A stretch of DNA of 48,921 nt, taken from the IMG/VR virus record IMGVR_UViG_2778261394_000010. One strand, 5' to 3'. Below, piece by piece: positions 8,477 to 41,670 of the stretch. The notes beneath the pieces were generated by a model. It did not search any database. It saw nothing but the letters and a program-made list of their open reading frames with translations, and had not been told where the DNA came from. A program made the translations under genes and the position numbers. Source of the stretch: a virus (lineage: Duplodnaviria; Heunggongvirae; Uroviricota; Caudoviricetes). Positions within the stretch are counted from its first letter, which is position 1. Each line of letters starts with the position of its first letter.

Positions 8477-9217
8477 TTAACTGGCGGTGACGGTAATTTC
8501 TGCAACCGCAGCAAACTCACCATTACCGGATACAACCGGAATGTTGACCTTGCCTGCAGCAACGCCGTTCACGGTGATGGTCATACCACTGACCGACACG
8601 GTGGCTTTTGTTTTATCCGCAGACACCGCACGAAAGCTCTTGTCGGTTACGCCCTCCGGCTGGAAGGCCACGGTCAGCGTGGTGCTCTGCCCTTTCACCA
8701 CCGAGGTGCTGGCAGGCGTCACGGTCATGCCGGTTGCCGCTGTTACCGTGCTGCGATCTTCTGCCATCGACGGACGTCCCACATTGGTGACTTTCACCGT
8801 GCGGGTGATCACTTCCTTCGCCGTCACCGCCTTACCGATACTGCTGACCCAGCCACGGAACACATCGACCGTGCCGTTCGGGAAGCGGATTTTATAGGCA
8901 CGGGTATCACCTTCATTAAACCACGCCAGCAGCGCCTGCTGCCCCTGCTCTCCGGGCATCCACGCCAGCGTGAAGCTGGTATCTCCGGCGGATTTCTGAC
9001 CCTGCCCGGTCGCGGTCCAGTCCGCATCTTCATCATCGAGATAACTGTCGTCATAGGACTCAGCGGTCAGTTCGCCGGGCGTCAGGTCTTTAACTTTAGC
9101 CAGACGCGACCAGTCAACGTCTGAAAGCGGGTTCGCATAAGGGTCGCCGCTCCCGTTATAAACCCACAGGGTGGTTCCGGCACCTTTCACCGGCATTGTA
9201 GGATTTGGTACAGGCAT
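8477..9217 (-). CDS. V: Major tail protein V
   Basis: ATG at 9215-9217 gives [20 protein letters not shown]…, 246 aa, matching lambda gpV; the ORF track extends 10 codons upstream to an earlier Met. Confidence 0.92.
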
Positions 9218-9224
9218 AGCGTCC

Positions 9225-9620
9225 TCACATTTCATAGGTAATGACATAAGTCAGATCGGCAGAACTCCACAGGCCCGCATCATCGTCGCGCCGGTAGTCA
9301 TAGCCGCTGGCCACCATACTGGTGATCAAATCTGACAGTGCCGGGATATCGCTCATCACCGGATAAATCCGGGACTCCATCCACGCATCCAGCTCTGAAT
9401 CCGGCACCTGAGCAGGCAGGAAAACTTCGATATGCAGCTCCGCCTGCCAGGTATCGCTGTCCAGCTCTTCGCCCGTGTATTCAGCGCCGGTGAGATAAAC
9501 GGCAACTGCCGGAAAATCCGCCTCATCAAAAACAGCGGGGCGACCATCAAAAAACGTCGTCCCGGTGTCATGCTTCTCCAGTGCATCCAGTACGGCTGCA
9601 CGGAGTTCAGTATGTTTCAT
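9225..9620 (-). CDS. U: Tail terminator protein U
   Basis: 131-aa [23 protein letters not shown]… matches lambda gpU. Confidence 0.92.
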
Positions 9621-10195
9621 CGCTTTATTACCATCCTCAGTTGATGCTGCAGCGCATAGCCCAGCTCTTTCGGAAGACGCTCACGCCGTATCCGCTCAAT
9701 ATTCTGTTTAAACGCCGTGGTCAGCGGCACCGCCATCGGGATTTTCACCACATCAATGGGGTAACGATTTTTCCCGGCCACACGCTGCATGACATGCCAG
9801 CGGCCATTTTTCAGTTGCTGAATAAACGCGCCGGGAATACGACGGTTTCCCACCACAAGCACGCTGCCGCCACCTTTCAGGGCTGAACGCTGCCCCTTTT
9901 TACGACGCCTGCGTCGGGACAGGACAATCCGCGCGTTACCCAGCTTTATTACGGGCAAATCCCCCCGGTTAACCTTGATTTTGGCCTGCGGATTTTTGAC
10001 CGTGGCCCTTTTCAGCCTGGCCCTTTCCTTTACCAGTTTCCGGCGTACCTTTGTCTCACGGGCAACCTGTGACGCCGACTGCGATATCGCGGATGAAGCA
10101 ACGCGGTTAATGGCCATTGCGGCGGCACCGGGCACCGCCGTTCTGCTGATACGGCTGAGGTTTTCAACGGCCTGCTCAAGACCTTTTATGGCCAT
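9617..10195 (-). CDS. Z: Tail completion protein Z
   Basis: 192-aa ORF MAIKGLEQAVENLSRIS… with an RRRRRKKGQR stretch, matching lambda gpZ. Confidence 0.92.
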   Translation of the reverse strand: MAIKGLEQAVENLSRISRTAVPGAAAMAINRVASSAISQSASQVARETKVRRKLVKERARLKRATVKNPQAKIKVNRGDLPVIKLGNARIVLSRRRRRKKGQRSALKGGGSVLVVGNRRIPGAFIQQLKNGRWHVMQRVAGKNRYPIDVVKIPMAVPLTTAFKQNIERIRRERLPKELGYALQHQLRMVIKR

Positions 10196-11011: not shown

Positions 11012-11802
11012 TTACGCCAGTTGTACGGACACGAACTCATCAGGGTCAGCCAGCAGCATCAGCGGTGCTGACTGAATCATGGTGAACTCACGCGCCGGAT
11101 CGCCGGTGGTCACCCAGTTTTTCGGGTAACGGGCAGAGGCGTTAATGCCTTCGCGCTGTGCGTCCGCATCCTGAATGCAGCCATAGGTGCGCAGACCGCG
11201 TGCCTGAGTGTTCCCCAGCACCATCGTGTTGTCCGGCAGGAAGTTCTTTTTGACGCCGTTTTCCACGTACTGTCCGGAATACACGACGATGGCCACATCG
11301 CCATACATCCCCTTATAGGACACCGCTTTACCTAGGTCTTTCACCGCTGTCTCCAGCTCGGAATTAGAGCCACGACGGGTATCCAGCTTTTCCTTGACGG
11401 CTTTGAAGGAACGGAACAGCGCCCAGCCTTTCGGATCAAACACGATGATATTCACCACACCGCTGGCGTTCAGCGCGTAGGCTTCGATATCGTCGGTCGG
11501 GTCATACGTGGACTTGTCACGCTTGCTCCACTCCGTGCCGCCGGACTGCGTGATGTTATTCTCCTCACTGCGGCCCATATCCACCTCAACCGGATCGAAG
11601 GCTTCACCGGTCATGGTGTATTTGCCCTTAAGCACGGCAGAAACTGCCTGCATCTCTTCGACCTGAGCAATGGCCAGCTCTTCGTCACGCATGTTCTGCA
11701 TGATGATGCGACGGCGGCGGTAAGCCGGGTCCGCCAGATTCTGCGGATCTTCATCCGGCAGGCGACGCAGGGTCATCTGCGGATTCACTTCATGCTTCGG
11801 CT
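11012..11802 (-). pseudogene. E: Major capsid protein E, 3' fragment (codons ~83-341), separated from its 5' part by the inserted element
   Basis: Frame reads …PKHEVNPQMTLRRLPDEDPQNLADP… to the normal E C-terminus (…DEFVSVQLA); an in-frame TAG immediately upstream at 11801-11803 marks the insertion junction. Confidence 0.9.
11793..11802. repeat. Left junction core of inserted element (TGCTTCGGCT; rc AGCCGAAGCA)
   Basis: Identical 10-mer recurs at 22723..22732; E-derived sequence is continuous across the two copies once the intervening 10.9 kb is removed. Confidence 0.85.
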
Positions 11803-11874
11803 ACATGAGTCAAATATGAAAGGAACTGAATGATTTTTAATGAAATAAATGGCTCTCTCTATCAAAATACAGCT

Positions 11875-11900
11875 AAAAAGCAATACACGTAGCAATACAG
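11875..11900. repeat. 26-bp terminal direct repeat, left copy (aaaaagcaatacacgtagcaatacag)
   Basis: Near-identical copy (aaaaagcaatacaagctgcaatacag) at 22570..22595 just inside the right junction; contains tandem GCAATACA half-sites. Confidence 0.6.
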
Positions 11901-11929
11901 CGCTTCGCAAAGGTATGTCACTATATCTA

Positions 11930-12865
11930 CTAGTGCCAACCAGAATACGAATATCTTTGCTTTGCTTCTTCTGGGCTCATACCCACTAGTAAAGATACTA
12001 ATTCAAAGTCAGGTTGTGGAATTGGAATCAATGCAGCCAAATATGCTGGCTTATTGAGAACAATTGTTGATAATTTAGCTTTATTCACCTTAGATAACTC
12101 AATATTACTTTCCGCCACCTTCGGGAACTCCATAATAAATGAATTAATTTCCCTTATGAGATAATCGATCAACGCCACTATACTTTCTGTCAAATCAATA
12201 TATTTTGACAACTCACTAGCACCAATTTCTTTCTTTATTTCATCCAATTTAATTTCAAACACTGGCTTGTCTTTACTGGCAATATTAGACAAACGTTTCT
12301 TTAAATCTGAATCAAGCTGATTCCTGACAATTAAACTTTTCAAAACAAAATTATAATTAAACAAAAAAGCATCAATTCGAGCAATATTCCTCCATGAGTT
12401 TCCAATTTCTTCATCTGACGGCATAATAAGTTCATGTTTTAGTATCTTGTACTTAATAAAAAAAACAAACCTCTCAAATAGAGATTTATTAGCTGTGGGT
12501 ATCTTTTTTATAAATGAAAGACGGCTAATATCGTAATTCACCTCCCCGGCGTTAAATAAAAATTCATTTATTGCCAGCGCTCTTAATATCGGATTTCTAG
12601 ATCTCAAACCAATATAACTACTTTTAATTCCCACAAGTGTATTTATCATCTGAAAAGAAACCATCATAAGCGTATTAGCAGAATTAAATTTCTCCGTTTC
12701 TATTTTAATCTTCTCTTGCCTATTATTGATGTAATAAGCAGTTAAGCCTCCCATAAGCGCCGATAAAAAAGATAATGCAATAGGGAATACATAATCTTTT
12801 GTATAATCAACATCTGCTTTCAACATTAGTATTGCTTTAGCAATCAAAACTGCATCAGGGGTCAT
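11930..12865 (-). CDS. Hypothetical protein, AT-rich cargo gene with a predicted N-terminal transmembrane segment
   Basis: Long ORF with low-GC codon usage unlike its neighbours; hydrophobic stretch YVFPIALSFLSALMGGLTAYYI; no recognisable motif. ATG at 12865 preferred over the TTG at 12895 used by the ORF track. Confidence 0.5.
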   Translation of the reverse strand: MTPDAVLIAKAILMLKADVDYTKDYVFPIALSFLSALMGGLTAYYINNRQEKIKIETEKFNSANTLMMVSFQMINTLVGIKSSYIGLRSRNPILRALAINEFLFNAGEVNYDISRLSFIKKIPTANKSLFERFVFFIKYKILKHELIMPSDEEIGNSWRNIARIDAFLFNYNFVLKSLIVRNQLDSDLKKRLSNIASKDKPVFEIKLDEIKKEIGASELSKYIDLTESIVALIDYLIREINSFIMEFPKVAESNIELSKVNKAKLSTIVLNKPAYLAALIPIPQPDFELVSLLVGMSPEEAKQRYSYSGWH

Positions 12866-13565
12866 GTTAGAGCCGTCATTAAAAATTAAACACAATACCC
12901 ATAAAATATAACAGCTTATTGTTTAGAAAAGCAATATCATACACTCTATGATAAGCGTAATATCTGACAGGCATGGTGTGTTACGACACTTAATTAAACG
13001 TAATTTGCTAAAATTTTACACACAGAATCACACCTGGCTCTAACTCTCCTTTCATTACAATTGTAAGCATACAATTATCCTACCAGAACTTTATTGTTGA
13101 GCTCTCCCTTTTGAGCCCATCCCATAATGAATTGACGAAAGAACCGTATCTGTGGAGTAATCATTTCTGCGCGGTTCTATGTCGAAGACAAAATGTGGTA
13201 TGCGCATCTAGTCAGAGGGAAAGCAATTTTTCAGGGAAATATCATCTCTACATGGTTAAGACAACCAGAAGAAGTTATCAAGCAAGTTGGGTATGAAGAT
13301 TTTCCTATAATAGTAACGAAACGGGTTTCACCTGAGCGGTTGTGTTCGATCCGCCACAATACGCATAGGATGCCCTGTAATCCGTATTCTGCTTACTCAA
13401 CAGCTTACCAGCAGGACTCGTAAGGCTGTTGCGATAGTGCAGAAGTAGGCCACGACCATAAAGTGAAGCCAGTGGCGCGTTATCGACTACTTTAGTGTAG
13501 AGCCTGATTTCAACGCAAGCATGAGAGTTTTTTCTGGCGATAGGCCGTGACAAACAGCAACAAAA

Positions 13566-13766
13566 TCAGAGAAAGGAAACGGCAGAGGCCAAAAAGCCCG
13601 TTTTCAGCGCCTGTCATTTCCTTTCTTTTCAGAGGGTATTTTAAATAAAAACATAAAGTTACGGCGAAGAAGAACGGAAACGCCTTAAACCGGAAAATTT
13701 CCATAAATAGAGAAAAACTGCGCGCCTGACGCCCCGTAGCCTGTCAGATCGCCGGAAAGGACCCGC
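13566..13766. other. cos-like site of the inserted element, homologous to the helper cos region but with a diverged cosN 12-mer
   Basis: About 200 bp aligns without gaps to helper 28935..29133 (most positions identical by eye); the cosN position reads cgcctgacgccc (13723..13734) against helper aggtcgtcgccc. Confidence 0.8.
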
Positions 13767-13790
13767 CAGCCAGAGCGGGCCCTAATTTCA

Positions 13791-14174
13791 TCAACCAATC
13801 AGCTTATAGCGACCATCCCGTGCATTGCGGCGTACACGCTCAATCTTGAGGCATAGCGCCGCATCTGGCTTTTTTGGGACAGGTACGCGGCAATATTCAG
13901 AAGCGCGAGGAATATTATTTATCCAGTCGATCACTTCACTTAAATACCAGGCCTTACGCCCTTCCGTAACCTGCACACGCTCCGGGAACTCTCCACTAGC
14001 CTCAAGGTTTAGCAGTGTACGCCGACTCAGGGTTGTAATTTCCATCACCTGATTCATATCAACAAGGCGCTCGCTTAAACACATTTTGTCAGCGATAGCT
14101 TTTAATTCCTCTACAGCTGGATTCGGGTACATCATTTCGGCAATTGGCTTAAGGTCATTGTAATCATTCTGCAT
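13791..14174 (-). CDS. HTH protein with an AlpA/MerR-like C-terminal half, function unknown (regulator or packaging-specificity factor)
   Basis: 127-aa ORF; segment EITTLSRRTLLNLEASGEFPERVQVTEGRKAWYLSEVIDWI resembles AlpA-family HTH; strong SD AAGGGGG; immediately downstream of the D-like gene and upstream of the cos-like site. Confidence 0.55.
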   Translation of the reverse strand: MQNDYNDLKPIAEMMYPNPAVEELKAIADKMCLSERLVDMNQVMEITTLSRRTLLNLEASGEFPERVQVTEGRKAWYLSEVIDWINNIPRASEYCRVPVPKKPDAALCLKIERVRRNARDGRYKLIG

Positions 14175-14185
14175 TGTATCCCCCT

Positions 14186-14527
14186 TTACACACGAGCCAG
14201 CGGCTGAACAGAAATACCTGAGCCAACAAACGCGGCAACCTTTGCCGACAGTTCTCTTACAGACTCAGGCCAGTTCAGAGCATCAACATTTAAAACACCT
14301 GTCTTATAAACCTGTGCCTGTGTTTTTTTCGCTGTGTCGATTTGTACAGCGGAAACATAAACCGCTTTGCCTGCGCTCGTTCCATCCCATACCACTAGCG
14401 CACCAGTTGCATCTTCCTGCATCAGTGGCGTAAACGCAGGTATTACCCCTTTATTGGCTGAAAATATCCCCAGCGTAGTAACCAGTGCTTCAGTGCCAGA
14501 CATGAGTTCAGTGTAATGAGTAGCCAT
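14186..14527 (-). CDS. Head decoration protein, diverged gpD homolog carried by the element
   Basis: 113 aa; …AFTPLMQEDATGALVVWDGTSAGKAVYVSAVQ… parallels lambda gpD …[35 protein letters not shown]…; strong SD AAGGGGGAG. Confidence 0.7.
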   Translation of the reverse strand: MATHYTELMSGTEALVTTLGIFSANKGVIPAFTPLMQEDATGALVVWDGTSAGKAVYVSAVQIDTAKKTQAQVYKTGVLNVDALNWPESVRELSAKVAAFVGSGISVQPLARV

Positions 14528-14536
14528 TGCTCCCCC

Positions 14537-15577
14537 TTAGCCAATGCGAACGGTAACAAAACGATTGATGCGGGCCGGTATTGGCTGTGGTGCTGAATGT
14601 GTCTGCACATATTCAATAGCCGGATCACCAGGCACAATATAGTTTTTCGGTGCAAGTTCGGCTTTAGTCAGCCCCATTCGGATTAGCTCCGGATCCTGAA
14701 TACCGCCATAGGCGACAATCCCCTGAAGAGCCGTATTGCCAAGCACCATCAAATCAGGATCAAGGAAATGTTTTTCAGTTCCGTCCTCGTCGGTATAACG
14801 CCCGCTGTATACAACAATCGCAACATCGCCCATATACCCTTTAAAACTCACCGAATCACCAAGGTCTTTAAGGGCCGTTTCCAGTTCGGAATTAGAACCA
14901 CGACGGGTATCCAGAGCCTCTTTTATCGCTCTGAATGAACGGTATTTCTTCCATACATTACCGCCCATAATGATGATATTAGTGACGCCCTCACTAAATT
15001 CTGCGTAGCTCTCAATATCATCATTTGGATCAAAAGTTTCTTTATCCTTACCTGACCACTCAGCACCGCCAGACTGAGTGATGATATTTTGTGGTTTAAT
15101 ATTCCAGTCCAGCTCATAACGTTCAATACCATCGCCCTCAATGATATTTTTCCCCGTTGTGATTGCCTGAACGGCAAGCCATTCAATACGTGCACGAATA
15201 GCTTTAGCCTGATTTACAATCGCCTGTTTAACTTTAATATTACGCGCTCCAAAAGCATTGTATTGCTCAGGTGATACACCAGCAGGGCGCACAGCTAACT
15301 TATTTGGATCAATGCTGCTTTTCGGCTTCATATAGCCTGGACGAATTGTTTTTGATTCGTACCCTTCGTCACGTGAAACTTTACTACCCACCATAGGAGA
15401 ACAAAACGCTGCAATTGGGATATTTGGATCGTCGATTGTATCAAGAATAATATCGCGCGATTCAAACATTACCGAGCGAGTAAAAAACAAACTGGTAAAC
15501 AACGCATTTAGTTGTTTTTGTACATCTACAGCATTAACCACCTGTACAAGCTGGGTAGGCGAATATAAATCAACCAT
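14537..15577 (-). CDS. Major capsid protein, diverged gpE homolog carried by the element
   Basis: 346 aa from ATG at 15577 (SD AAGAGGA); shares ITQSGG.EWS, TRRGSNSELET and GDVAIVVYSG motifs with lambda gpE but is clearly diverged; earlier in-frame starts at 15583 and 15598 are possible. Confidence 0.85.
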   Translation of the reverse strand: MVDLYSPTQLVQVVNAVDVQKQLNALFTSLFFTRSVMFESRDIILDTIDDPNIPIAAFCSPMVGSKVSRDEGYESKTIRPGYMKPKSSIDPNKLAVRPAGVSPEQYNAFGARNIKVKQAIVNQAKAIRARIEWLAVQAITTGKNIIEGDGIERYELDWNIKPQNIITQSGGAEWSGKDKETFDPNDDIESYAEFSEGVTNIIIMGGNVWKKYRSFRAIKEALDTRRGSNSELETALKDLGDSVSFKGYMGDVAIVVYSGRYTDEDGTEKHFLDPDLMVLGNTALQGIVAYGGIQDPELIRMGLTKAELAPKNYIVPGDPAIEYVQTHSAPQPIPARINRFVTVRIG

Positions 15578-15749
15578 ACGCATCCTCTTTGCATTCATTA
15601 AAAATAATTGTGGATATATGCTATCACCGATATTTGTCATGCGAATACATGCAACCGAGTGCAATGTTGTATAAAGTTTTGGGATGACAACTTCAGCACG
15701 GATAATTAGTGTTAATATCTTCACTCCCTTTGGTCTGGATTTATGTAGC

Positions 15750-15790
15750 ATGCCGGAAAATTTATTTTTTTTCCGGCCTTTTTTATTGGC
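15750..15790 (+). terminator. Hairpin with flanking T-tract (gccggaaaa…ttttccggc + ttttttatt)
   Basis: 9-bp perfect stem followed by a T-run on the plus strand, between the SSB and capsid genes; may act in either direction given the flanking A/T tracts. Confidence 0.4.
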
Positions 15791-15795
15791 AATAT

Positions 15796-16245
15796 TTAAA
15801 ACGGAATATCATCTCCCCATTGCTCATTATCTCCCACTGGTGGATGGCTTCCTTGCTGATCTGCCTGTTGTTTTGCTCTGTTCAGTGCGTCAGTAGCCTG
15901 ACCCTGTTGATCTTTTTTGCCGCCCGGTCGCACCGTTCGCGCACTGATTACGCTGTCTGCGATAACCTGCCAGCCCTGCCGCGTTTCACCGTTCTGTCCA
16001 GTCCACTGGCTCACCTGCATATTACCCGCCACGCTCAGGAGTTCGCCTTTGTGATGCTTTGCCAGCGTGTCGGCTTGTCTGCCAAACGCCAGCACAGATA
16101 ACCACATCGTCGCCGTTCCGTCATCTGCCTGGCTGCATGGCAAAGATACCGCCATCCGTGCCAGTGTCATGGGTGTTCCCTTGCTGGTATGTTTTACCTG
16201 TGGGTCGTCCACCAGCCGCCCGTAAGCTGCTATTTGCGCCGTCAT
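15796..16245 (-). CDS. ssb: Single-stranded DNA-binding protein
   Basis: 149 aa with Gly/Gln-rich linker and acidic C-terminal tail ending DDIPF, the SSB hallmark. Confidence 0.85.
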   Translation of the reverse strand: MTAQIAAYGRLVDDPQVKHTSKGTPMTLARMAVSLPCSQADDGTATMWLSVLAFGRQADTLAKHHKGELLSVAGNMQVSQWTGQNGETRQGWQVIADSVISARTVRPGGKKDQQGQATDALNRAKQQADQQGSHPPVGDNEQWGDDIPF

Positions 16246-16256
16246 GCTGCCTGCTC

Positions 16257-16499
16257 TCAGGACTTAATATTGATGGTTGTCACTTCCTCCGCTTCGGCAA
16301 TCTCCCGTTCGGTCAGCGTGGCAAAGTTTGCAGCCGCCGTTGTCATGAATGCGCTTATCAGTTCGGGATGTGCTTTCGCGTATCCTTCCCCGGCGTTGCG
16401 GTCTATTGCCTTAATCGCCACCCTTAGCCAGTGTTCAGCCATATCAAGGGCGCGGTAATGTGGCTTTATATGTTTGTTCAGTTTTCCTGATGTGTGCAT
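16257..16499 (-). CDS. Hypothetical protein
   Basis: 80-aa ORF between the iteron origin and ssb, co-oriented with the replication operon; no motif recognised. Confidence 0.4.
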   Translation of the reverse strand: MHTSGKLNKHIKPHYRALDMAEHWLRVAIKAIDRNAGEGYAKAHPELISAFMTTAAANFATLTEREIAEAEEVTTINIKS

Positions 16500-16546
16500 T
16501 TTTATTTTTACCCCCTCGTTTAAAAAGTTTTTTGTGCACCACCACC

Positions 16547-16777
16547 TTGTCTACCTTGTCTACCTGATTAGTTATCAGGCCAGTAATGGCGCGGGTTTCA
16601 GGGAGGTAGACAGCCCCAAATAGCTGTCTACCTCATCTCTACCCGTCTCCTTACCTGTCTACAAAAATGGGTAGATAAGGTAGATAACAGGTAGACAGTG
16701 AAAAATAGTTATCTACCTGCATTAATACATTGAAATAAAAGCATTTTATTTCAGTCAGGTAGACAAGGTAGATAACC
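16547..16777. repeat. Iteron cluster, putative replication origin of the element
   Basis: At least 12 copies of GGTAGAYA / TRTCTACC in both orientations, some tandem (ggtagataaggtagataacaggtagacag), with AT-rich spacers, immediately downstream of the primase-helicase gene. Confidence 0.7.
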
Positions 16778-16788
16778 ATTGCCATTTT

Positions 16789-18540
16789 TTATAAAAACGC
16801 ATCGCAATCATCAGTAGTCGTTGCGTTGGTCTGCGTGACTCCCTTAACTTTTCGCGTAATATATTCATATCCGTAAACTTTCGCCGCTGACCTCATAGCC
16901 TTTCCGAACTCATTCACGCTCAAACATTTCCCCTTTCCTGTATATGCCATGAAGGCCATATAGACACGGTAAAGGCTGTTTCTGGTCGTGTACTTCACGG
17001 TGTCACCACCACCGCCCATCATTAGCCCACGAGCTTCCTCCAGAAACTCCAGCGCCGCGCAAAGCTCAACAACCGGATCCGTTTGCTGCTTTATTGCCAG
17101 AGCTTCATCACCGTCACGCTGTTCCAGTAATAAAGCCCGTGCCTTTTCAGGGTCAGCAAAATTAGCCAGCAAGCGGCGGATAATTACGGGGATTTCTGCC
17201 GCTATCTTTTCCGGTAATTCCTTGTCTTTTTCGTCCTCCCTTACAATGTTGTCGAACCGGAAAATCACCCGACGGCGTGACACACCTCCGGCCCGTTCGG
17301 TAAAGATCATCGGGTCGTTATTGGTTGCCAGTACCACCGCCCTTATTATCGTCGTGAATCGCTTCTCATATTTCGGGTTAATTTCAACGGGATCGCCTCC
17401 CGTGATTTTCTTGATGCCCGTGCCTTCCCCCGTATATTTCGGCTGATCGGCAAGGACGATAAGACGACTCCCGACAACCTGCGCACGCCCTCCTGCATCA
17501 TCGAGTGATGTCATCTCTGCGCTTACGGTGTTCTGTTTGCCAGCAAGCAGGGTGGCAATATGGGTAAATGTACTCTTACCGCTTCCCCCGTCTCCGGTGG
17601 CCTCAATGAACATCTGCCAGTCGTACCGGTTCGCCATAATCATGTACAGCGCGGCACATATACGCATCATCTTGCGCGGGTCTTTTCCGGCTGCGTGCTC
17701 AAGCCATTTATGAAAGTTTGGCGCGTTATCGCGGATGTTCTCCCCTGGTGCTGGTGGCGTGTACTCAATGCCGTTGTGCGTGGTGATCCAGTTCTCCGGC
17801 GTGTGCGGGGAAAATTCCCCCGTTTTCAGGTCAAGCGCACCATTGGCGAACGGCAGCAAATCGCCGGACGGCTCGCCCATTGGTTCGGCAATAACTTTTA
17901 ACGCTTCAACGGCGTTATTGATCACGCGTTTGCTGAAAGTGGCCCTGTGCTCTGAATAGATCGCCACCATTTCGCGGCTCAGCTCCATTGTGCTGATCGG
18001 ACACCATACCCCGCCGCGCCATACGTGAACGATTTCACTTTCCGGATGCACACAAACGCCATCAAAGCGCTCGGCAAGCAGCTGCGCGCGCTCACTGTCT
18101 GCCATCTGTGAAAGTTGCGCCTTTTGCTTCGTCGGAAGATTAAGCACCAGGCTTTCCCCACGCTCGCATTCCTCTTTGAGTCGCGGCAACTGGTCGGATA
18201 AATCCACTGGGCTGGTGTCAGTAATCCCCGCGTATTCGTGTACGGTCTTCACTCCAGCCACAGCCAGTAACGTAACAATCTGCGTCATGCTGTGCTCTGT
18301 GATATGTCCTGCGCGGTAAACACGCACACACTGACGATCTTCATCAATGATCCGGTAATCGGTGATGTTTTTCAGTTGCTCATCAGCCAACACGACAGGC
18401 GGCACATCGTCGGCGGCAATATGTTTACCCGCCCATTCCTGCCACTCTTTCGCATGGCTCCACGCATCACTACCTGCAAAGATGATTATCTCTGTCAGTC
18501 TGTCGCGTGGCTGTTTTTTTAAGTTCGGTGCCAGTTTCAT
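16789..18540 (-). CDS. Primase-helicase replication protein (P4-alpha / D5-like, SF3 helicase)
   Basis: 583 aa; Walker A GDGGSGKST followed by a D5_N/SF3-like region (…IVLADQPKYTGEG…LATNNDP…); adjacent to the iteron origin. Confidence 0.85.
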   Translation of the reverse strand: MKLAPNLKKQPRDRLTEIIIFAGSDAWSHAKEWQEWAGKHIAADDVPPVVLADEQLKNITDYRIIDEDRQCVRVYRAGHITEHSMTQIVTLLAVAGVKTVHEYAGITDTSPVDLSDQLPRLKEECERGESLVLNLPTKQKAQLSQMADSERAQLLAERFDGVCVHPESEIVHVWRGGVWCPISTMELSREMVAIYSEHRATFSKRVINNAVEALKVIAEPMGEPSGDLLPFANGALDLKTGEFSPHTPENWITTHNGIEYTPPAPGENIRDNAPNFHKWLEHAAGKDPRKMMRICAALYMIMANRYDWQMFIEATGDGGSGKSTFTHIATLLAGKQNTVSAEMTSLDDAGGRAQVVGSRLIVLADQPKYTGEGTGIKKITGGDPVEINPKYEKRFTTIIRAVVLATNNDPMIFTERAGGVSRRRVIFRFDNIVREDEKDKELPEKIAAEIPVIIRRLLANFADPEKARALLLEQRDGDEALAIKQQTDPVVELCAALEFLEEARGLMMGGGGDTVKYTTRNSLYRVYMAFMAYTGKGKCLSVNEFGKAMRSAAKVYGYEYITRKVKGVTQTNATTTDDCDAFL

Positions 18541-18836
18541 TTTTTGCCCCTGAATGCGTTAATCATGCTTTTCATTTTCTGGATGTTTCCCCGCGCTTTT
18601 TCCCTGCTGATGGGCTTACTGCGGGGTGCGGCATATACCAGGGAAAAATCACGCCGGAACTGATAAACAGGCATCACGCAGTCATAGCTATACCCCTCAC
18701 GACGGTAAGTGATGCGCCGTTCTGCCACGCCTTTAATCGTTACCGTGCCGCCGTATTTATCGCGGTAAATATCGCCGTTCATAAATTCAGGCCGAGCGGG
18801 GCCGCTGGCAATAAAGCCAGAATTTTTCATTTCCAT
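18537..18836 (-). CDS. Hypothetical protein
   Basis: 99-aa ORF whose stop overlaps the primase-helicase start (4-nt overlap), suggesting translational coupling. Confidence 0.4.
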   Translation of the reverse strand: MEMKNSGFIASGPARPEFMNGDIYRDKYGGTVTIKGVAERRITYRREGYSYDCVMPVYQFRRDFSLVYAAPRSKPISREKARGNIQKMKSMINAFRGKK

Positions 18837-18853
18837 ATTATTTATTCCTCGAC

Positions 18854-19075
18854 TTAACTCGACTTATTTGATAGCAGGGCACTATTTATTGCGTCATTGA
18901 GTTTTTCTGCTGCTTCATCAATAAGTGACAACAGGCCATAAGCAATATTTGCATCTTCATTGTCATTTATGCAATCAAGCCACATATTTAATATTGCTTT
19001 TGCTGAATTATTTAAAGTTAATGAACTTTCTGCACATGCTAACAATTTAAAAAAGACTTCCCGTTCTGTATTCAT
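18854..19075 (-). CDS. Hypothetical small protein (AT-rich)
   Basis: 73-aa ORF in the same operon; low GC. Confidence 0.3.
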   Translation of the reverse strand: MNTEREVFFKLLACAESSLTLNNSAKAILNMWLDCINDNEDANIAYGLLSLIDEAAEKLNDAINSALLSNKSS

Positions 19076-19267
19076 TTAATCCCCCACCAGCTTACTTTCT
19101 TCCTCAATCAAAAAACTAGCGACACTTCCCGAAAGACGCGCCAGTAGGCTCGCCAGTGCGGATATATCAGCATCTGTAATTTTGTTCGGGTATACCTCAA
19201 GAAGGCGGCAAATAATTTCTGTCTGGTGCGCACGTTCAGCGGCTTCGTGTAATGTGATTTCCTGCAT
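19076..19267 (-). CDS. Hypothetical small protein
   Basis: 63-aa ORF tightly packed between neighbours. Confidence 0.3.
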   Translation of the reverse strand: MQEITLHEAAERAHQTEIICRLLEVYPNKITDADISALASLLARLSGSVASFLIEEESKLVGD

Positions 19268-19452
19268 TAATGCACCTCTTTTAATTCATACACTGCTGAA
19301 ATAATGACTTGTGATAAGCCATATTCTGATGATTCGCTTCTCACCGCAGCAATAGCCGTCTGAACATTAACAGCCTTCACATTCTGAGCGATACCAATTG
19401 TGTGGCCTATTGGGTTAACAGCTCGGGCAAATACACGGAAGGTTTTAAGCAT
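19267..19452 (-). CDS. Hypothetical small protein, first gene of the element's leftward operon
   Basis: 61-aa ORF directly downstream of the divergent control region. Confidence 0.3.
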   Translation of the reverse strand: MLKTFRVFARAVNPIGHTIGIAQNVKAVNVQTAIAAVRSESSEYGLSQVIISAVYELKEVH

Positions 19453-19832
19453 GACTCACTCCCTGGCGGATTTTTGCAGCGAATACAGCAACACAACCGG
19501 ACGGGCAACGGCTACGCGCTTCGCGTTCCGTCCAGGCGGTTACGTGGATGATTTGAGATTCTCCGGCACTCAGTGCCAGAAAACGCCACACAAAGGCCGT
19601 TTGTGTGTGTACAAGGTGTGGTATATGATTTACAGCAACCATAACGGCTCCTAGTTTACGTTGTTGGTTAGACGCCCCGTATGTGTTCCCAGCACTGCGG
19701 GGCGTTGCTCTTTGTATTTCAACAATCCTTTCGGTGTGTTTCATGTTATGAGCGCATGAAACACACGTCAAGGCTTTTTGTATTTCTTTTTTTGTGTATA
19801 CTGAAACACACCGATGATTAGGAGTTTCAGAA

Positions 19833-20138
19833 ATGGCAACGGCTAACAAAAACGCAAAATCACAACTGACAACTGTCAGAGTCCCACTAGATGTTATGCA
19901 AGGGATGGAATCCGTTAAGCTGGACGGTGAAAGCAATGCCGGATTTATCGTAACCGCCATGCGCGGTGAAATCGCCCGCCGCCAGGCAGAAGGAAGCGGA
20001 GAAAATCCCCTCGTGTCTTCACTGGATACCTTAGCTAAGGTCGAACAAATCGGCATCAAGGCAGCGGAGGAAATCGGGCAACTCGTAGCCGTCGCTCGTG
20101 AAGAACTCCAGCGGCGTAAAGCCAAAGAATCTGAATAA
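19833..20138 (+). CDS. Putative regulator of the element, fold not assigned
   Basis: 101-aa ORF with strong SD AGGAG, transcribed divergently from the replication/capsid operon across a structured intergenic region. Confidence 0.4.
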   Translation: MATANKNAKSQLTTVRVPLDVMQGMESVKLDGESNAGFIVTAMRGEIARRQAEGSGENPLVSSLDTLAKVEQIGIKAAEEIGQLVAVAREELQRRKAKESE

Positions 20139-20488
20139 TTAGTATCAGCGCCGTGATGTGAGTAACTACGGCGCATTGCTATGTAAATACTGGCAATAAA
20201 CAGAAAAGGTAGTTCTACTCCGAATAATTTTATCTGACACTACTCCTGAACTAACATGCGCTTATCTTACAGGATATAAATATAAATCCATAAAATCACG
20301 ATTAAATAAAGTCGCTCCAAACATAAACCACACCCAACGCTTAACAAGATAGCAACAAACAGGTAAATAACTTGCAGAAATATTTATCGCAAGGATTATC
20401 ATTATTAATGACAAATCACTTTACCAAGTCATTCCCCTCTCTTATCATAAAGAGAAAGTAATAAATAAGTTAAGGGAGTTAGAATGCT

Positions 20489-21025
20489 ATGAATCTAAAA
20501 AAAATAGCCACAAACACAAAAAACAAGATAACAGAAACATTTAATAAACTTATATTAGAGGCATCTAAAACCCCCACACAAGATGAAATTAAAATACTTG
20601 AGAGAAGGAGTAAGAAGTTTAATTACTCCTTTTTCTCATACGCAGTCACAGGAGCTATAATAGTTTTTTGCTCTCAACCATTAATTAAATACGCAAACCC
20701 AATACTTATTTTATTGAGTGGTCTGTTACTGTCTATCATCATTATCATTCTCAGAATGATTTATATTTCACAAGCGAATGCATCATGGACAACCAAAAAA
20801 CGCTCACATGTACTAGTTCATTTTCTTTCTGCATGTTTCATAGCATCAACATTGACGTTGCTATATCAGGCTTACGATAATAACATCACACACAAATTGT
20901 ACTGTAAAAATATACAACAACTTATTGAAAAAAGGATAGAAACAGAAAAAAACATCAGCATATTCAGTGGGATGCAATGCACCCCGGTATATGATTACTC
21001 TTTATTTGGATTTAATCTCTTATAA
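20489..21025 (+). CDS. Hypothetical membrane protein, AT-rich cargo gene
   Basis: 178 aa with hydrophobic segments (AVTGAIIVFCSQPLI, ILILLSGLLLSIIIIIL); very low GC; followed by a perfect 13-bp inverted repeat. Confidence 0.5.
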   Translation: MNLKKIATNTKNKITETFNKLILEASKTPTQDEIKILERRSKKFNYSFFSYAVTGAIIVFCSQPLIKYANPILILLSGLLLSIIIIILRMIYISQANASWTTKKRSHVLVHFLSACFIASTLTLLYQAYDNNITHKLYCKNIQQLIEKRIETEKNISIFSGMQCTPVYDYSLFGFNLL

Positions 21026-21034
21026 AGAATGTTA

Positions 21035-21068
21035 TTACTGATTTGAGTACAAATTCTCAAATCAGTAA
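21035..21068. terminator. Perfect 13-bp inverted repeat (ttactgatttgag / ctcaaatcagtaa), probable bidirectional terminator
   Basis: Lies between the convergent cargo gene (+) and the AlpA gene (-), flanked by A/T runs. Confidence 0.5.
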
Positions 21069-21094
21069 TTCATAATATTTTATTCTGAGATAAT

Positions 21095-21331
21095 TTAAAC
21101 TACCCACTCACCTCGAATCCATGCCTGCACTTCTGAAAGACGATATGCAACAGCAGTGGAACCAATCTTGATCCGCTTAGGAAATTTTCCTTCCTTCTCC
21201 AGCTTCCAGCGTGTGCTGTTCGCAAGAGTGGTTAGCTCCCGACATTCTTTCTCACGGATCATTCGGTCAATGTTAGGAATGTACTCCAGACCCTTTTTAT
21301 CAACAATTGCCATTTTTTTCATGTTAACCAA
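21095..21331 (-). CDS. alpA: AlpA-family HTH regulator / excisionase-like protein
   Basis: 78 aa; ELTTLANSTRWKLEKEGKFPKRIKIGSTAVAYRLSEVQAWI fits the AlpA/Xis HTH_17 pattern; immediately downstream of the integrase. Confidence 0.75.
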   Translation of the reverse strand: MVNMKKMAIVDKKGLEYIPNIDRMIREKECRELTTLANSTRWKLEKEGKFPKRIKIGSTAVAYRLSEVQAWIRGEWVV

Positions 21332-22559
21332 CCTTTTGTTTGAGGATTGTCACTTTTGAATCAGCACCTGCGATGCTATTGAGATATGTAGTCCAGAGTT
21401 CCAGAGCATCCAGTTTTTTAGCCATAAACTTACTCCGGTTGTAAACACCTGCCACGCCAGGTAGCGCATGGCCTAACAGTTGTTCTACTACATAAAATTC
21501 AACACCGAGATCACTTAGATGAGTAGATAGCGTTCTTCTAAGGTCGTGTAGTGACCATTGTTTTTCATGGCCCAAACGTTTACCGATTTTCCCCCCAATC
21601 TTGCTTACGCTTTCTCTAATTCGCAGACTTCCCAGCACATAACCAGTATGTTTTGTCTCTTCGTGAACATCCGTTACCCACTGTCGTAGAATTTCAGGTA
21701 CTGGTCTGACGATTTCAACACCAGTTTTTGAGTGATCTTTTGGTACAGTCCAAACCCAACTTTCGAGATCCCATTCGCTCCATTCTGATAATCGGGCTTC
21801 ACTCATTCGACATCCAAATACTGTACAAAGCACAAACATTTTTCGCGTGTATTCAGACATTAGTTTTAAATCAGGCTCGACAAAAATTGCCTTCCAGAGC
21901 TGGCCGAGTTCGGCTTCATCCAGAACCCGATCCCGCTTACCTGCAATCTGCCCCACATCACTCATGCGCAAATCCTTTAAAGCATCACACGTCGCGTACT
22001 GGCGTACCCGACAAAAACGAAGAGCTAATTTAGTGTCAGAAAAAACATACGCCGCCATAACTGGTGCATTACGTTTAATTCGGTCAAAACAGTCCAGCCA
22101 TTCATATAGGTGAGTGTCATTTACGGGCAAATGACCGATATAGGGAAAGATATGCTTTCGAAATCTGCCAAGCGTTACAGCATGAGTTTTACGACGCACC
22201 TTACAGTAATTTTCATACCAGTAATTTAGTGCATCCTCCACTGTAACCGGCTTTAAGCGTTCTTCAGCCTGAATCTTAATCTGGATACGCGGATCACGTT
22301 TGTCAGCCAACCAACCACGGCACTCGTCGCGCTTTTCCCTTGCCTGTTTGAGTGACATATCAGGATATTTACCCAACGTTAGCCAGACCGGAGCAGCCCG
22401 GCCACCTGCTAACCTGTAGAAGAAAACAAAGCTCACAGCCCCTTTAGTACTCACACGAATAGAAAGCCCCTTTCCATCAGCAATGGTGATCTGCTTTTCT
22501 CTGGGTTTCCCCAGATATCCTTTAAGCGCTTTGTCGCTCAGTTTGTTCTCGCCAGCCAT
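21324..22559 (-). CDS. int: Tyrosine integrase (P4-type) of the inserted element
   Basis: ATG at 22559 gives MAGENKLSDKALKGYLG…; C-terminal catalytic region with …HDLRRTLSTHLSDLGV…LLGHA…; about 160 bp from the right junction core. Confidence 0.9.
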   Translation of the reverse strand: MAGENKLSDKALKGYLGKPREKQITIADGKGLSIRVSTKGAVSFVFFYRLAGGRAAPVWLTLGKYPDMSLKQAREKRDECRGWLADKRDPRIQIKIQAEERLKPVTVEDALNYWYENYCKVRRKTHAVTLGRFRKHIFPYIGHLPVNDTHLYEWLDCFDRIKRNAPVMAAYVFSDTKLALRFCRVRQYATCDALKDLRMSDVGQIAGKRDRVLDEAELGQLWKAIFVEPDLKLMSEYTRKMFVLCTVFGCRMSEARLSEWSEWDLESWVWTVPKDHSKTGVEIVRPVPEILRQWVTDVHEETKHTGYVLGSLRIRESVSKIGGKIGKRLGHEKQWSLHDLRRTLSTHLSDLGVEFYVVEQLLGHALPGVAGVYNRSKFMAKKLDALELWTTYLNSIAGADSKVTILKQKVG

Positions 22560-22569
22560 TTTTAGCCCC

Positions 22570-22595
22570 AAAAAGCAATACAAGCTGCAATACAG
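22570..22595. repeat. 26-bp terminal direct repeat, right copy
   Basis: aaaaagcaatacaagctgcaatacag, matching the left copy at 11875..11900 at 24 of 26 positions by eye. Confidence 0.6.
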
Positions 22596-22722
22596 AGATG
22601 ATTGCAACACACAGATAACGAGGAAAATTCAGTGAAAGCACCAGATAAACTTATTCTTTATTATCAAAAGATTAAGTGTAAAAACCAGCAACTACACGAA
22701 AGCCTCAGAAAGCCATGCTAAG

Positions 22723-22732
22723 TGCTTCGGCT
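22723..22732. repeat. Right junction core of inserted element (TGCTTCGGCT)
   Basis: Second copy of the 10-mer; on the minus strand E reads …GTC AAG CCG AAG CAC and then diverges into element sequence (LAWLSEAFV stop). Confidence 0.85.
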
Positions 22733-23022: not shown

Positions 23023-23355
23023 TTAAACGATGCTGATTGCCGTTCCGGCAAACGCGGTCCGTTTTTTCGTCTCGTCGCTGGCAGCCTCCGGCCAGAGCAC
23101 ATCCTCATAACGGAACGTGCCGGACTTGTAGAACGTCAGCGTGGTGCTGGTCTGGTCAGCAGCAACCGCAAGAATGCCAACGGCAGCACCGTCGGTGGTG
23201 CCATCCCACGCAACCAGCTTACGGCTGGAGGTGTCCAGCATCAGCGGGGTCATTGCAGGCGCTTTCGCACTCAATCCGCCGGGCGCGGTTGCGGTATGAG
23301 CCGGGTCACTGTTGCCCTGCGGCTGGTAATGGGTAAAGGTTTCTTTGCTCGTCAT
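23023..23355 (-). CDS. D: Head decoration protein D
   Basis: [52 protein letters not shown]…, 110 aa, lambda gpD. Confidence 0.92.
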
Positions 23356-23364
23356 AAACATCCC

Positions 23365-24684: not shown

Positions 24685-28365
<3,681 letters not shown>

Positions 28366-28391
<26 letters not shown>

Positions 28392-29865: not shown

Positions 29866-30108
29866 TTTGTCGCTCCATGCGCTTGCTCTTCATCTAGCGG
29901 TTAAAATATTACTTCAAATCTTTCTGTATGAAGGTTTGAGCACGTTGGCCTTACATACATCTGTCGGTTGTATTTCCCTCCAGAATGCCAGCAGGACCGC
30001 ACTTTGTTACGCAACCAATACTATTAATTGAAAACATTCCTAATATTTGACATAAATCATCAACAAAACACAAAGAGGTCAGACCAGATTGAAGCGATAA
30101 AAACGATA

Positions 30109-30561
30109 ATGCAAACTACGCGCCCTCGTATCACATGGAAGGTTTTACCAATGGCTCAGGTTGCCATTTTTAAAGAAATATTCGATCAAGTGCGAAAAGA
30201 TTTAAACTGTGAATTGTTTTATTCTGAACTAAAACGTCACAATGTCTCACATTATATTTACTATCTAGCCACAGATAATATTCACATTGTGTTAGAAAAC
30301 GATAACACCGTGTTAATAAAAGGACTTAAAAAGGTTGTAAATGTTAAATTCTCAAGAAATACGCATCTTATAGAAACGTCCTATGATAGGTTGAAATCAA
30401 GAGAAATCACATTTCAGCAATACAGGGAAAATCTTGCTAAAGCAGGAGTTTTCCGATGGGTTACAAATATCCACGAACATAAAAGATATTACTATACCTT
30501 TGATAATTCATTACTATTTACTGAGAGCATTCAGAACACTACACAAATCTTTCCACGCTAA
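30109..30561 (+). CDS. ybcV: Hypothetical protein (YbcV-like)
   Basis: [47 protein letters not shown]…; first ATG in frame at 30109, alternative at 30151. Confidence 0.55.
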
Positions 30562-30851: not shown

Positions 30852-31145
30852 ATGAAAAAAATGCTACTCGCTACTGCGCTGGCCCTGCTTATTACAGGAT
30901 GTGCTCAACAGACATTTACTGTTCAAAACAAACAGACAGCAGTAGCACCAAAGGAAACCATCACCCATCATTTCTTCGTTTCTGGAATTGGGCAGAAGAA
31001 AACTGTCGATGCAGCTAAAATTTGTGGCGGCGCAGAAAATGTTGTTAAAACAGAAACCCAGCAAACATTCGTAAATGGATTGCTCGGTTTTATTACTTTA
31101 GGCATTTATACTCCGCTGGAAGCGCGTGTGTATTGCTCAAAATAA
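30852..31145 (+). CDS. bor: Bor lipoprotein (serum-resistance moron)
   Basis: 97 aa with lipobox LLITGCAQ; matches lambda Bor; between cos and Rz on the opposite strand, as in lambda. Confidence 0.9.
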   Translation: MKKMLLATALALLITGCAQQTFTVQNKQTAVAPKETITHHFFVSGIGQKKTVDAAKICGGAENVVKTETQQTFVNGLLGFITLGIYTPLEARVYCSK

Positions 31146-31176
31146 TTGCATGAGTTGCCCATCGATATGGTCAGCT

Positions 31177-32935: not shown

Positions 32936-34033
32936 ATGAAAAAATTAACAGTGGCAATTTCTGCTGTAGCTGCATCAGTACTGATGGCGATGTCTGCTCA
33001 GGCAGCTGAAATTTATAATAAAGACAGTAACAAGCTGGATCTGTACGGGAAAGTTAATGCCAAGCACTACTTTTCCTCTAACGATGCAGATGATGGTGAT
33101 ACTACTTATGTTCGTCTGGGCTTCAAAGGCGAAACCCAAATCAACGATCAGCTGACTGGTTTCGGTCAGTGGGAATATGAATTCAAAGGCAACCGCGCTG
33201 AATCTCAAGGTTCCTCCAAAGACAAAACCCGTCTTGCATTTGCAGGCCTGAAATTCGGTGACTACGGCTCAATCGATTACGGCCGTAACTACGGTGTAGC
33301 ATACGACATCGGTGCGTGGACTGACGTTCTGCCAGAATTCGGTGGCGATACCTGGACCCAAACAGATGTGTTCATGACTGGTCGCACCACAGGTGTTGCA
33401 ACCTATCGTAACAACGACTTCTTTGGTCTGGTTGATGGTCTGAACTTTGCTGCTCAGTACCAAGGCAAAAACGATCGTAGCGATTTCGATAACTACACCG
33501 AAGGTAACGGTGATGGCTTCGGTTTCTCTGCTACCTATGAATACGAAGGATTCGGTATCGGTGCAACTTATGCGAAATCTGATCGTACCGACACTCAAGT
33601 TAATGCAGGGAAAGTTCTTCCTGAAGTATTTGCTTCCGGTAAAAATGCAGAAGTTTGGGCCGCAGGTCTGAAATATGACGCTAACAACATTTACCTGGCC
33701 ACTACCTATTCTGAAACCCAGAATATGACTGTATTTGCTGATCACTTCGTTGCTAATAAAGCTCAAAACTTCGAAGCTGTTGCACAATATCAGTTCGATT
33801 TCGGTCTGCGTCCGTCCGTTGCTTACCTGCAATCTAAAGGTAAGGATCTTGGAGTATGGGGCGATCAGGACTTAGTCAAATATGTTGATGTAGGTGCAAC
33901 CTATTACTTCAACAAAAATATGTCTACTTTCGTTGATTACAAAATCAACCTGCTTGACAAAAATGACTTCACTAAAGCACTCGGTGTAAGCACTGATGAC
34001 ATCGTTGCTGTAGGTCTGGTTTACCAGTTCTAA
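32936..34033 (+). CDS. Outer-membrane porin (NmpC/Lc/OmpC family, prophage moron)
   Basis: 365 aa with signal peptide (…[12 protein letters not shown]), trimeric-porin motifs and C-terminal …VGLVYQF; between Q and S on the opposite strand, as for nmpC in DLP12. Confidence 0.9.
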
Positions 34034-40873: not shown

Positions 40874-40977
40874 TTCCTATTGGTATTGCAATGAATGAAT
40901 AATAGCAATGCGTATTAACCCAAGCAATAGCAAAACGTGTTTTGACCATCAATACGCAAGCGTATAAATTAAAACTT
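40874..40977. promoter_or_regulatory. OR-like operator / divergent promoter region between cro and cI
   Basis: Repeated operator-like elements sharing a TAGCAAT / CAATACG core (attgcaatg, atagcaatgcgtat, caatagcaaaacg, caatacgcaagcg); the same motif family recurs at OL (43540..43600). Confidence 0.5.
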
Positions 40978-41670
40978 ATGAAAAAAGAAACTCTTGCTGA
41001 TCGCTTAAACCTAGCGATGGAACAATCTGGAATGTCTCAAGGCGCTCTTGCAAAGGCGTCTGGCGTAGCTCAACCCACAATCTGGAGACTGACAAGCGGC
41101 AACGCGCGCGGCTCAACAAAAATTGTTGAAATAGCTAATGCATTGGGTGTTCGAACAGAATGGCTCTCATCAGGCATAGGCCCGATGAGAAATGACGGTC
41201 AACAATCAGGGAAGCCTGCTGTCAGCCATTCCAAATACTTCAAAATTGACGTTCTTGATATAGAAGTCAGTGCCGGGCCGGGTGTAATCAACCGTGAGTT
41301 TGTAGAAGTTCTACGCTCGGTTGAGTACTCGTTTGACGATGCTCGTCACATGTTCGATGGCAGGAAGGCAGAAAATATCCGCATCATTAACGTGCGTGGT
41401 GACAGCATGTCAGGAACGATCGAACCAGGTGATCTGCTGTTCGTTGATATCACGGTTAAATCTTTCGACGGTGATGGTATCTATGCGTTTCTGTACGACG
41501 ACACAGCCCATGTAAAGCGTCTGCAAATGATGAAGGATAAGCTGCTGGTTATCTCTGATAACAAGAGCTACTCACCGTGGGACCCGATCGAGAAAGACGA
41601 GATGAACCGGGTGTTCATCTTCGGTAAGGTTATTGGGAGCATGCCGCAGACGTATAGGAAGCATGGGTAG
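40978..41670 (+). CDS. cI: CI-like repressor (HTH plus S24 LexA-type peptidase domain)
   Basis: N-terminal HTH (LADRLNLAMEQSGMSQGALAKASGVAQPTIWRL) and C-terminal S24 motifs (GDSMSGTIEPGDLLFVD…VKRL); start 40978 preferred over 40942, which overlaps operator repeats. Confidence 0.8.
   Translation: MKKETLADRLNLAMEQSGMSQGALAKASGVAQPTIWRLTSGNARGSTKIVEIANALGVRTEWLSSGIGPMRNDGQQSGKPAVSHSKYFKIDVLDIEVSAGPGVINREFVEVLRSVEYSFDDARHMFDGRKAENIRIINVRGDSMSGTIEPGDLLFVDITVKSFDGDGIYAFLYDDTAHVKRLQMMKDKLLVISDNKSYSPWDPIEKDEMNRVFIFGKVIGSMPQTYRKHG

Follow-up and report, generated by a model that had tools for sequence, protein, structure and literature searches.

The 48,921-nucleotide stretch of viral DNA analysed here, referred to in full as the window (tailed-phage record IMGVR_UViG_2778261394_000010), is a lambda-like prophage with tail genes up to position 11009 and head genes D, C, B, W, A and Nu1 at 23023-28911. 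Its major capsid gene E is split: its opening ~82 codons reach ~22722, and the other ~263 lie on the far side of a 10.9-kb satellite (11793-22731) that is inserted in, and co-oriented with, gene E of the presumed helper prophage. Our subject is the last gene of this satellite, an AT-rich open reading frame (ORF) that we refer to as the cargo gene (Table 1). A preliminary description, made from the sequence letters alone, had recognized the element as a satellite or phage-inducible chromosomal island (PICI), an identification that the split E gene, the att cores and the gene order bear out.

Comparison of both junctions with lambda E defined a 9-bp att core, GCCGAAGCA, and precise excision of the satellite would restore gene E. 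The satellite encodes an integrase with Arm-DNA-bind_3 and Phage_integrase domains (21324-22610), a helix-turn-helix (HTH) protein, a primase, a single-stranded-DNA-binding protein (SSB) and an AlpA-family HTH protein, as well as a Phage_cap_E capsid protein and a decoration protein of its own. With gene E split at the capE site, a 9-bp core and genes in the order integrase, AlpA, primase and late zone, the element is a helper-embedded PICI of the published '11capE' type (Tommasini, Mageeney & Williams 2023, PMC10111431). The likeness to 11capE includes its 11-kb length, the integrase, AlpA-type HTH protein, primase, SSB, own capsid and decoration genes and cos, and also integration near codon 80 of a co-oriented lambda-like E, with a short block of identity and an arm motif that is doubled. 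In the window, a doubled GTATTGC motif at 11880-11900, within the right arm and conserved in four elements, probably corresponds to the doubled arm motif reported for helper-embedded PICIs in that study (PMC10111431), which does not discuss right-end cargo or defence genes.

Table 1. Features of the cargo gene region and of the satellite ends, by position in the window
Feature	Position	Strand	Evidence
C-terminal fragment of the interrupted helper capsid gene E	11012..11800	-	ORF list, RefSeq
attR core GCCGAAGCA, inside lambda-like gene E	11793..11801		Junctions compared with lambda E
3' flank of the cargo gene: right arm of the satellite attachment site	11802..11929		Direct repeat with 22570-22595
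Cargo gene (WP_088540875.1, PHROG 21267)	11930..12865	-	ORF list, RefSeq, PHROG profile, dN/dS
A8 tract (T8 on the coding strand) within the cargo gene	12458..12465		Alignment to one E. coli copy, split annotation in two more
Predicted transmembrane helix, codons ~25-46	12728..12793	-	Hydropathy, AlphaFold2, conservation
5' non-coding region of the cargo gene, GC 0.34	12866..13149	-	Identity to Enterobacter copy
Spacer from cargo cassette to cos, GC 0.447	13150..13559		Backbone common to other PICIs
Lambda-like cos region of the satellite	13560..13766	-	Genome matches
attL core GCCGAAGCA, opposite satellite end	22723..22731		Junctions compared with lambda E

An AT-rich gene under purifying selection

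The cargo gene lies downstream of cos, with its stop codon 128 nt from attR, and is therefore indeed beside the att site, where it had first been placed. The ORF ends at 11930 on the minus strand and encodes 311 amino acids from an ATG at 12865 or 321 from an upstream TTG at 12895, the two lengths originally given. We take the ATG as the start because RefSeq annotates the 936-nt ATG form (WP_088540875.1, 'hypothetical protein'), because close homologues all begin with MTPDA or MSxDA and because the alignment to PHROG 21267 covers residues 11-321 of the longer form. That profile, of unknown function, is matched over its full length (positions 1-291 of 291; E = 1.8e-131). The G+C content (GC) of the gene is 0.324, compared with 0.56 in the capsid and tail flank, 0.455 in the remaining satellite and 0.496 in the whole window, so that the strikingly low GC relative to its flanks noted at the outset is confirmed; equally low values occur in just 1.1% of 936-bp windows across the 48.9 kb. 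The ratio of non-synonymous to synonymous substitution rates (dN/dS) is 0.11-0.13 against homologues with 84%, 72% and 65% amino acid identity, in alignments ungapped over 936 nt, which identifies the ORF as a real gene under purifying selection.

The gene is present in 17 of 5,426 complete E. coli genomes (0.3%), at an identical location in all. One copy, that of strain 20Ec-P-124 (the only genome aligned here), carries A7 in place of the A8 tract, which shifts the frame and divides the ORF in two; FCI1 and GPEC1446 have the same 935-nt match and split annotation. The A7 variant could be an assembly error, decay or phase variation acting as an on/off switch. Rarity, together with the apparent splitting of 3 of the 17 copies by a 1-nt homopolymer change, would suit an ORF that is spurious or in decay and has no function. 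We regard that reading as very improbable, given the dN/dS values, the presence of conserved positions throughout 306 cluster representatives and a confident structural model (see below); the conservation data effectively refute it.

Upstream, positions 12866-13149 share 82% identity with the region 5' of an Enterobacter copy of the gene, and the entire segment 11791-13149 shares 80% DNA identity with a chromosomal islet of Enterobacter cloacae. Judged from this identity, the 284-bp upstream region moves with the cargo gene and is probably its promoter or regulatory region. The adjoining spacer contains no annotated gene; strain HYM1 has a partial hypothetical pseudogene at the equivalent place. 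The preliminary description had proposed a single non-coding AT-rich stretch of ~670 bp (12896..13565). No coding sequence is annotated there, as it stated, but the stretch consists of two parts, the first (12866-13149) with a GC of 0.34 and the second (13150-13565) with one of 0.447. A scan of the gene flanks for promoters and terminators found no terminator for the cargo gene, and no Rfam family matched the flanks. The cos-like site recognized earlier is well founded: the region has ~90% identity to unannotated cos regions of lambdoid prophages in ~2,900 E. coli genomes. In sequence it resembles lambda cosN/cosB.

Sequence and fold searches gave no informative match. The cargo protein had no significant hit in Pfam, NCBIfam or PADLOC (PADLOC-DB v2.0.0; 0 matches), in agreement with the initial impression that it contains no recognizable motif. 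For 54 diverse members of its family, Pfam returned nothing and PADLOC scattered single matches only, all with E > 0.001, and no fused domain was found when eight longer members were compared with Pfam. A profile search of PDB sequences yielded noise only, and Foldseek found no significant match for the AlphaFold2 model in PDB or BFVD. The remote-homology search and structure prediction suggested beforehand thus point to no housekeeping or structural homologue. A literature search for WP_088540875.1 and PHROG 21267 found nothing, as did a tblastn search of 50,697 phage records with a family member of the tail-operon type described below.

Accessory slots occupied by the family

The cargo gene is located between cos and attR, at the att end distal to the integrase gene, and this slot is hypervariable among related capsid-embedded PICIs with the same backbone. 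In strain IAI39 and others it holds a gene for a 380-amino-acid protein with TIR_2 and DUF3298 domains, in HYM1 one for a 290-amino-acid 'restriction endonuclease', and in 09A19CPO009 one for a DUF2971 protein that matches the PADLOC candidate PDC-S31 (7.6e-26). The locus therefore harbours different genes in related elements, the comparison that had been proposed, and these alternative cargos substantiate the claim of a variable cargo slot beside att. According to the Penadés group (PMC11364771), immune systems are found at either the 5' or the 3' end of PICIs. The 3'-end immune region of Gram-negative PICIs, described by Fillol-Salom et al. 2022 as cited in PMC11364771, lies in the same place, after the packaging or late module and cos and before the att site opposite the integrase, and the slot here resembles it in varying among islands (TIR, DUF2971/PDC-S31 and nuclease-like cargo). 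The cargo gene differs from the other occupants of the 3' slot in its direction: it is transcribed with the island late genes, whereas the alternatives are transcribed against them. In IAI39 itself, an IS3 element has truncated the integrase of the satellite (locus L002, 21421-23995), and the island abuts a partial second integrase and a tRNA-Arg gene, which indicates loss of the helper head region from between the island and the end of the prophage.

A word-indexed search retrieved 17 close relatives of the cargo protein, all from Enterobacteriaceae, and a profile search of 1.84 billion representative sequences expanded the family to 306 cluster representatives at 50% identity. Named members are encoded by Enterobacter, Citrobacter, Leclercia, Buttiauxella, Ewingella, Pseudoalteromonas and Zhongshania; all are Gammaproteobacteria and all the proteins are annotated as 'hypothetical'. 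Five kinds of genomic context were seen. Three PICI lineages have the gene in the 3' slot (the window, locus L023 and loci L024/L015). In P2-like phages it occupies the cos- or portal-proximal part of the gpA-gpQ hotspot defined by Rousset et al. 2022 (PMC9122126), as gp01 of phage AC1 and at loci L033 and L039, in both of which the neighbour is a P2-type portal gene. The commonest context in the sample examined is the lambdoid tail operon, where it is inserted between I and J, tail genes on its own strand, with gaps of 36-60 bp. Elsewhere, a Buttiauxella prophage has it immediately 5' of the terminase gene, and a viral contig (L040) has it ~2.5 kb downstream of lysis genes; finally, it is found in small chromosomal islets that contain no phage genes. 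Accessory slots in three kinds of phage elements thus hold the family, and two or more of these slots are documented as defence hotspots.

The composition of the gene is foreign in all of these settings. Its GC is 0.32-0.41 in every context examined, with at least one flank higher by 10-25 points (flanks up to 0.57); at some P2-like loci, the adjacent hotspot DNA is as AT-rich as the family gene. No constant partner gene accompanies it across contexts. One of the chromosomal islets, in Enterobacter cloacae (L011-L014, ~8720-10075), consists of the cargo gene and its upstream region with a doubled GTATTGC arm motif and a degenerate att core, features that mark it as a relic of a PICI right end; it contains no other satellite or phage gene and adjoins a gene for a 652-amino-acid protein with a SIR2_2 domain.

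The I-J junction could be scored in 54 viral contigs in which relatives of both I and J were placed. The junction was empty (33-52 bp) in 39 of the 54, measured 74-96 bp in 7 and 193-1103 bp in 8. The larger gaps, where translated, contained unrelated and often AT-rich ORFs, none of them from this family. The lambdoid I-J junction therefore behaves as an insertion slot, and because it is usually empty in relatives, the family gene is a facultative insert, or moron, rather than a core tail gene. Inserts at this junction (loci L058-L118) include L081 5148-5876, L080 5190-5822 and L095 5106-5342, and one of the inserts encodes a 242-amino-acid protein with a signal peptide. In Enterobacter lambdoid prophages whose I-J slot holds the family, an inserted DUF6694 gene also separates the tape-measure gene from M (L051 3628-4431, L053 788-1582), possibly another tail-module moron.

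As a facultative insert of deviant composition between conserved phage genes, the family gene has the hallmarks of a moron in the sense of Hendrix and Cumby. Of a promoter and terminator of its own, the PICI form shows a conserved upstream region, and the I-J form has almost no intergenic space. We conclude that the cargo gene is a self-contained, horizontally mobile single-gene moron that occupies the accessory slot at the 3' end of a helper-embedded PICI.

Such a distribution can be read in ways that have nothing to do with competing phages. The gene might encode a late-expressed fitness factor of phage or satellite that was captured by the satellite late zone from a lambdoid helper, and that, for example, tunes lysis timing, blocks re-adsorption or re-injection of progeny, or assists the tail tip or DNA exit. 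This would fit the predominance of the tightly spaced, same-strand I-J position in our sample, the place of the PICI copy as the last gene co-oriented with helper late transcription, and the reported capture of helper late genes into the late zone of PICIs (PMC10111431). We nevertheless think it unlikely. The gene is facultative, in that phages with an 85-96% identical gene I usually lack it; its AT-rich, foreign composition is the same in every context examined; and it also occurs in P2-like phages, with unrelated tail and lysis machinery, and in chromosomal islets with no phage genes.

Less probable still is a lysogenic-conversion factor that serves host physiology, such as membrane stress or colonization, in the manner of the morons bor and lom. 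Composition and facultative presence are those of a moron of this sort, and the same prophage encodes the conversion morons Bor and a porin. The recurrence of the family in defence-enriched slots, beside TIR and SIR2 genes, speaks against it, as does the predicted cytoplasmic, rather than surface-exposed, location of most of the protein.

Predicted topology and proposed modes of action

It is the location of the cargo gene, and only its location, that leads us to favour anti-phage cargo as its role, with a probability of roughly 0.55. Besides occupying defence hotspots, family members adjoin a TIR system in AC1 and the SIR2-domain gene of the Enterobacter relic. The base rate for such slots lends further support: when 8 genes of unknown function were picked at random from the hotspots of P4 satellites, 6 gave protection against phages, and 15-32% of the unknown genes in P2 hotspots are flagged by machine-learning methods (PMC13586616).

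Several observations weigh against this role. In AC1, the only tested phage with a homologue, the three cloned genes of the TIR system, gp01 not among them, reproduced the protection of the lysogen against lambda and LF82_P8 (PMC9122126), so the homologue gp01 is not required for that protection. The lambdoid copies are co-oriented with, and tightly packed into, the late tail operon, which suggests late lytic expression rather than expression in the lysogen. The PICI copy is likewise co-oriented with helper late transcription, with the alternative cargos of its slot on the opposite strand, and the scan of its flanks found no sigma-70 consensus promoter on the coding strand. The charge of the predicted cytoplasmic domain is inconsistent among members (isoelectric points of 5.1-9.4), and nothing in it suggests DNA binding. 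Finally, the apparently frameshifted E. coli copies amount to 3 of 17.

The protein has one hydrophobic segment, at residues ~25-46 (Kyte-Doolittle 19-residue mean of 1.62), and no other. The AlphaFold2 model, built from 18 sequences, is all-helical (predicted local distance difference test score, pLDDT, 85.7; predicted template modelling score, pTM, 0.76), with a continuous helix at residues 21-84 that spans this segment and further long helices at 161-193 and 216-252. Hydropathy and model thus agree with the single N-terminal transmembrane (TM) anchor that had been predicted. In the 15 residues after the TM segment, lysine plus arginine averages 3.7, versus 1.9 before it, a pattern seen in 46 of 54 diverse members. 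By the positive-inside rule, this would place the N-terminal tail in the periplasm and the large domain in the cytoplasm. We therefore picture the cargo protein as having a periplasmic N-terminal tail of ~24 residues, one TM helix and a cytoplasmic, all-helical domain of ~265 residues, an arrangement that is predicted from charge counts and the model.

Conservation extends to both sides of the membrane. The N-terminal tail is conserved and mildly acidic, and a KDYxFP motif marks the N-terminal edge of the TM helix (K23-D24-Y25, with P28 in 92%). A stripe of small residues, S35/G39/A43 (G39 in 90%, A43 in 87%), runs along the helix and would suit helix-helix packing. In the predicted cytoplasmic domain, N64, L77, K81, Y84, P92, R95, W158, N170, R181, E227 and D234 are conserved. 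Two candidate activities were set aside. A HEPN-type RNase effector, which carries a conserved Rx4-6H motif, was rejected as family members share no conserved histidine, and a blocker of receptors in the periplasm is made less likely by the positive-inside count.

How such a protein might act on phages can be proposed with some reserve. The predicted inner-membrane protein would exclude competing phages at the inner membrane by interfering with genome entry or with the tape-measure/inner-membrane channel, and its conserved periplasmic tail and TM helix might contact an injection component or a host protein of the inner membrane. We favour direct interference with an early inner-membrane step because the tail and TM helix are conserved, because the family is associated with siphovirus tail modules, the home of exclusion morons such as HK97 gp15 and cor, and because the defence protein SNIPE offers a precedent for the topology (see below). 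HK97 gp15 and P22 SieA are precedents for exclusion of this kind. Even so, we hold this mechanism only tentatively, at somewhat less than even odds.

A close rival to an entry block is an abortive-infection effector: the cytoplasmic domain would sense a phage product, the TM helices would oligomerize through S35/G39/A43 and depolarize the inner membrane, and the cell would die before phage release. The hotspot evidence serves this possibility as well as it serves exclusion, the small-residue stripe is conserved, and membrane proteins of known systems are generally seen as suicide effectors (PMC9122126). Co-expression with a late operon would also be harmless in a cell that is already dying. 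Against this, each chain has a single TM helix and bears no resemblance to known pore-forming effectors; the PADLOC model of the 2TM effector matched 1 of 54 members, at E = 0.005; no partner sensor or antitoxin gene is present; and the conserved periplasmic tail would be left without explanation. Abortive infection seems to us an unlikely account overall, about on a par with a late fitness factor.

In its most extended and more doubtful form, an entry block would make the family an unrecognized single-protein anti-phage system that shuttles among at least four slots: the 3' end of PICIs, the P2 gpA-portal hotspot, the lambdoid I-J junction and the position upstream of terminase. The protein might then be an inner-membrane sentinel whose tail and TM helix detect siphovirus injection machinery and whose novel helical domain (K81, Y84, R95, E227, D234) blocks entry without a nuclease, and the T8 tract may switch it on and off.

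Known systems, neighbouring cargo and implications

Among characterized defences, the cargo protein can be compared with SNIPE, or PD-lambda-1 (Saxton et al. 2026, PMC13190303). Both are single-gene and both are linked to siphovirus biology, and the layout predicted for the cargo protein resembles that of SNIPE in its brief periplasmic N-terminal part, its single-pass inner-membrane anchor and its large domain in the cytoplasm. For SNIPE, the N-out topology has been shown experimentally, and the protein acts at the injection site (PMC13190303). The cargo protein differs in having no DUF4041, GIY-YIG nuclease, PADLOC PD-lambda-1 match or recognizable catalytic motif.

The 2TM-1TM-TIR system of AC1 (Rousset et al. 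2022, PMC9122126) is related by position. The homologue gp01, 27% identical to the cargo protein, lies in the hotspot that holds this system, on the cos-proximal side and on the strand of the TIR genes. AC1 gp02, gp03 and gp04 match the three PADLOC models of the system (TIR-TM, 1TM and 2TM), which is validated and whose cloned genes correspond to these three components (PMC9122126). We considered gp01 as a further component of the TIR system and rejected it: none of the three models matches gp01, and it is ~750 bp away.

Single membrane-associated exclusion proteins are also encoded by facultative inserts in or beside the tail modules of temperate siphoviruses, examples being HK97 gp15, cor of phi80 and N15, and SieA of P22. 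These act on genome entry or on a receptor, from the periplasmic side or the outer membrane. They are much smaller than the cargo protein, the bulk of which is predicted to be cytoplasmic.

Further AT-rich cargo is present in the window. Near the integrase end of the satellite, a second AT-rich islet (20170-21100, GC ~0.31) may be 5'-end accessory cargo; it contains an ORF on the opposite strand (20489..21025, plus strand, 178 amino acids) with no PADLOC match and a weak match to DUF443. Directly 3' of the satellite primase gene, a repeat cluster (16604-16776) comprises two 30-nt palindromic units (16604-16633 and 16689-16718) and two GGTAGAyAAGGTAGATAAC units (16670-16688 and 16758-16776), and is probably the satellite replication origin. 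In the helper prophage, the AT-rich islands at 30028-34033 encode a DUF1398 protein (30028..30561), Bor (30852..31145) and a porin (32936..34033), which are classical morons. Immediately after the cI-like repressor gene (40942..41670), an AT-rich pair of genes at 41717-43368 on the plus strand encodes a HipA_2-like kinase (282 amino acids) and an overlapping DUF3037 protein (268 amino acids), with weak PADLOC matches to the candidates PDC-M03A and PDC-M66B. This cassette stands where lambda has rexAB.

Both this type of island and the idea that its end bears a variable defence slot are already in the literature. What is new is an uncharacterized protein family that recurs across four slots and is a better-than-average defence candidate. 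Were the cargo gene inactive against phages, it would be an ordinary hypothetical moron. Should it turn out to exclude phages, the catalogue of defences would gain a domain-less family of membrane-anchored proteins, together with a clean case of one defence gene moving among satellites, P2-like phages and lambdoid tail operons. The lambdoid I-J junction would then be flagged as a cargo slot worth mining, and the residence of the satellite inside its own helper would bear on how satellites and helpers share protection against competitors.

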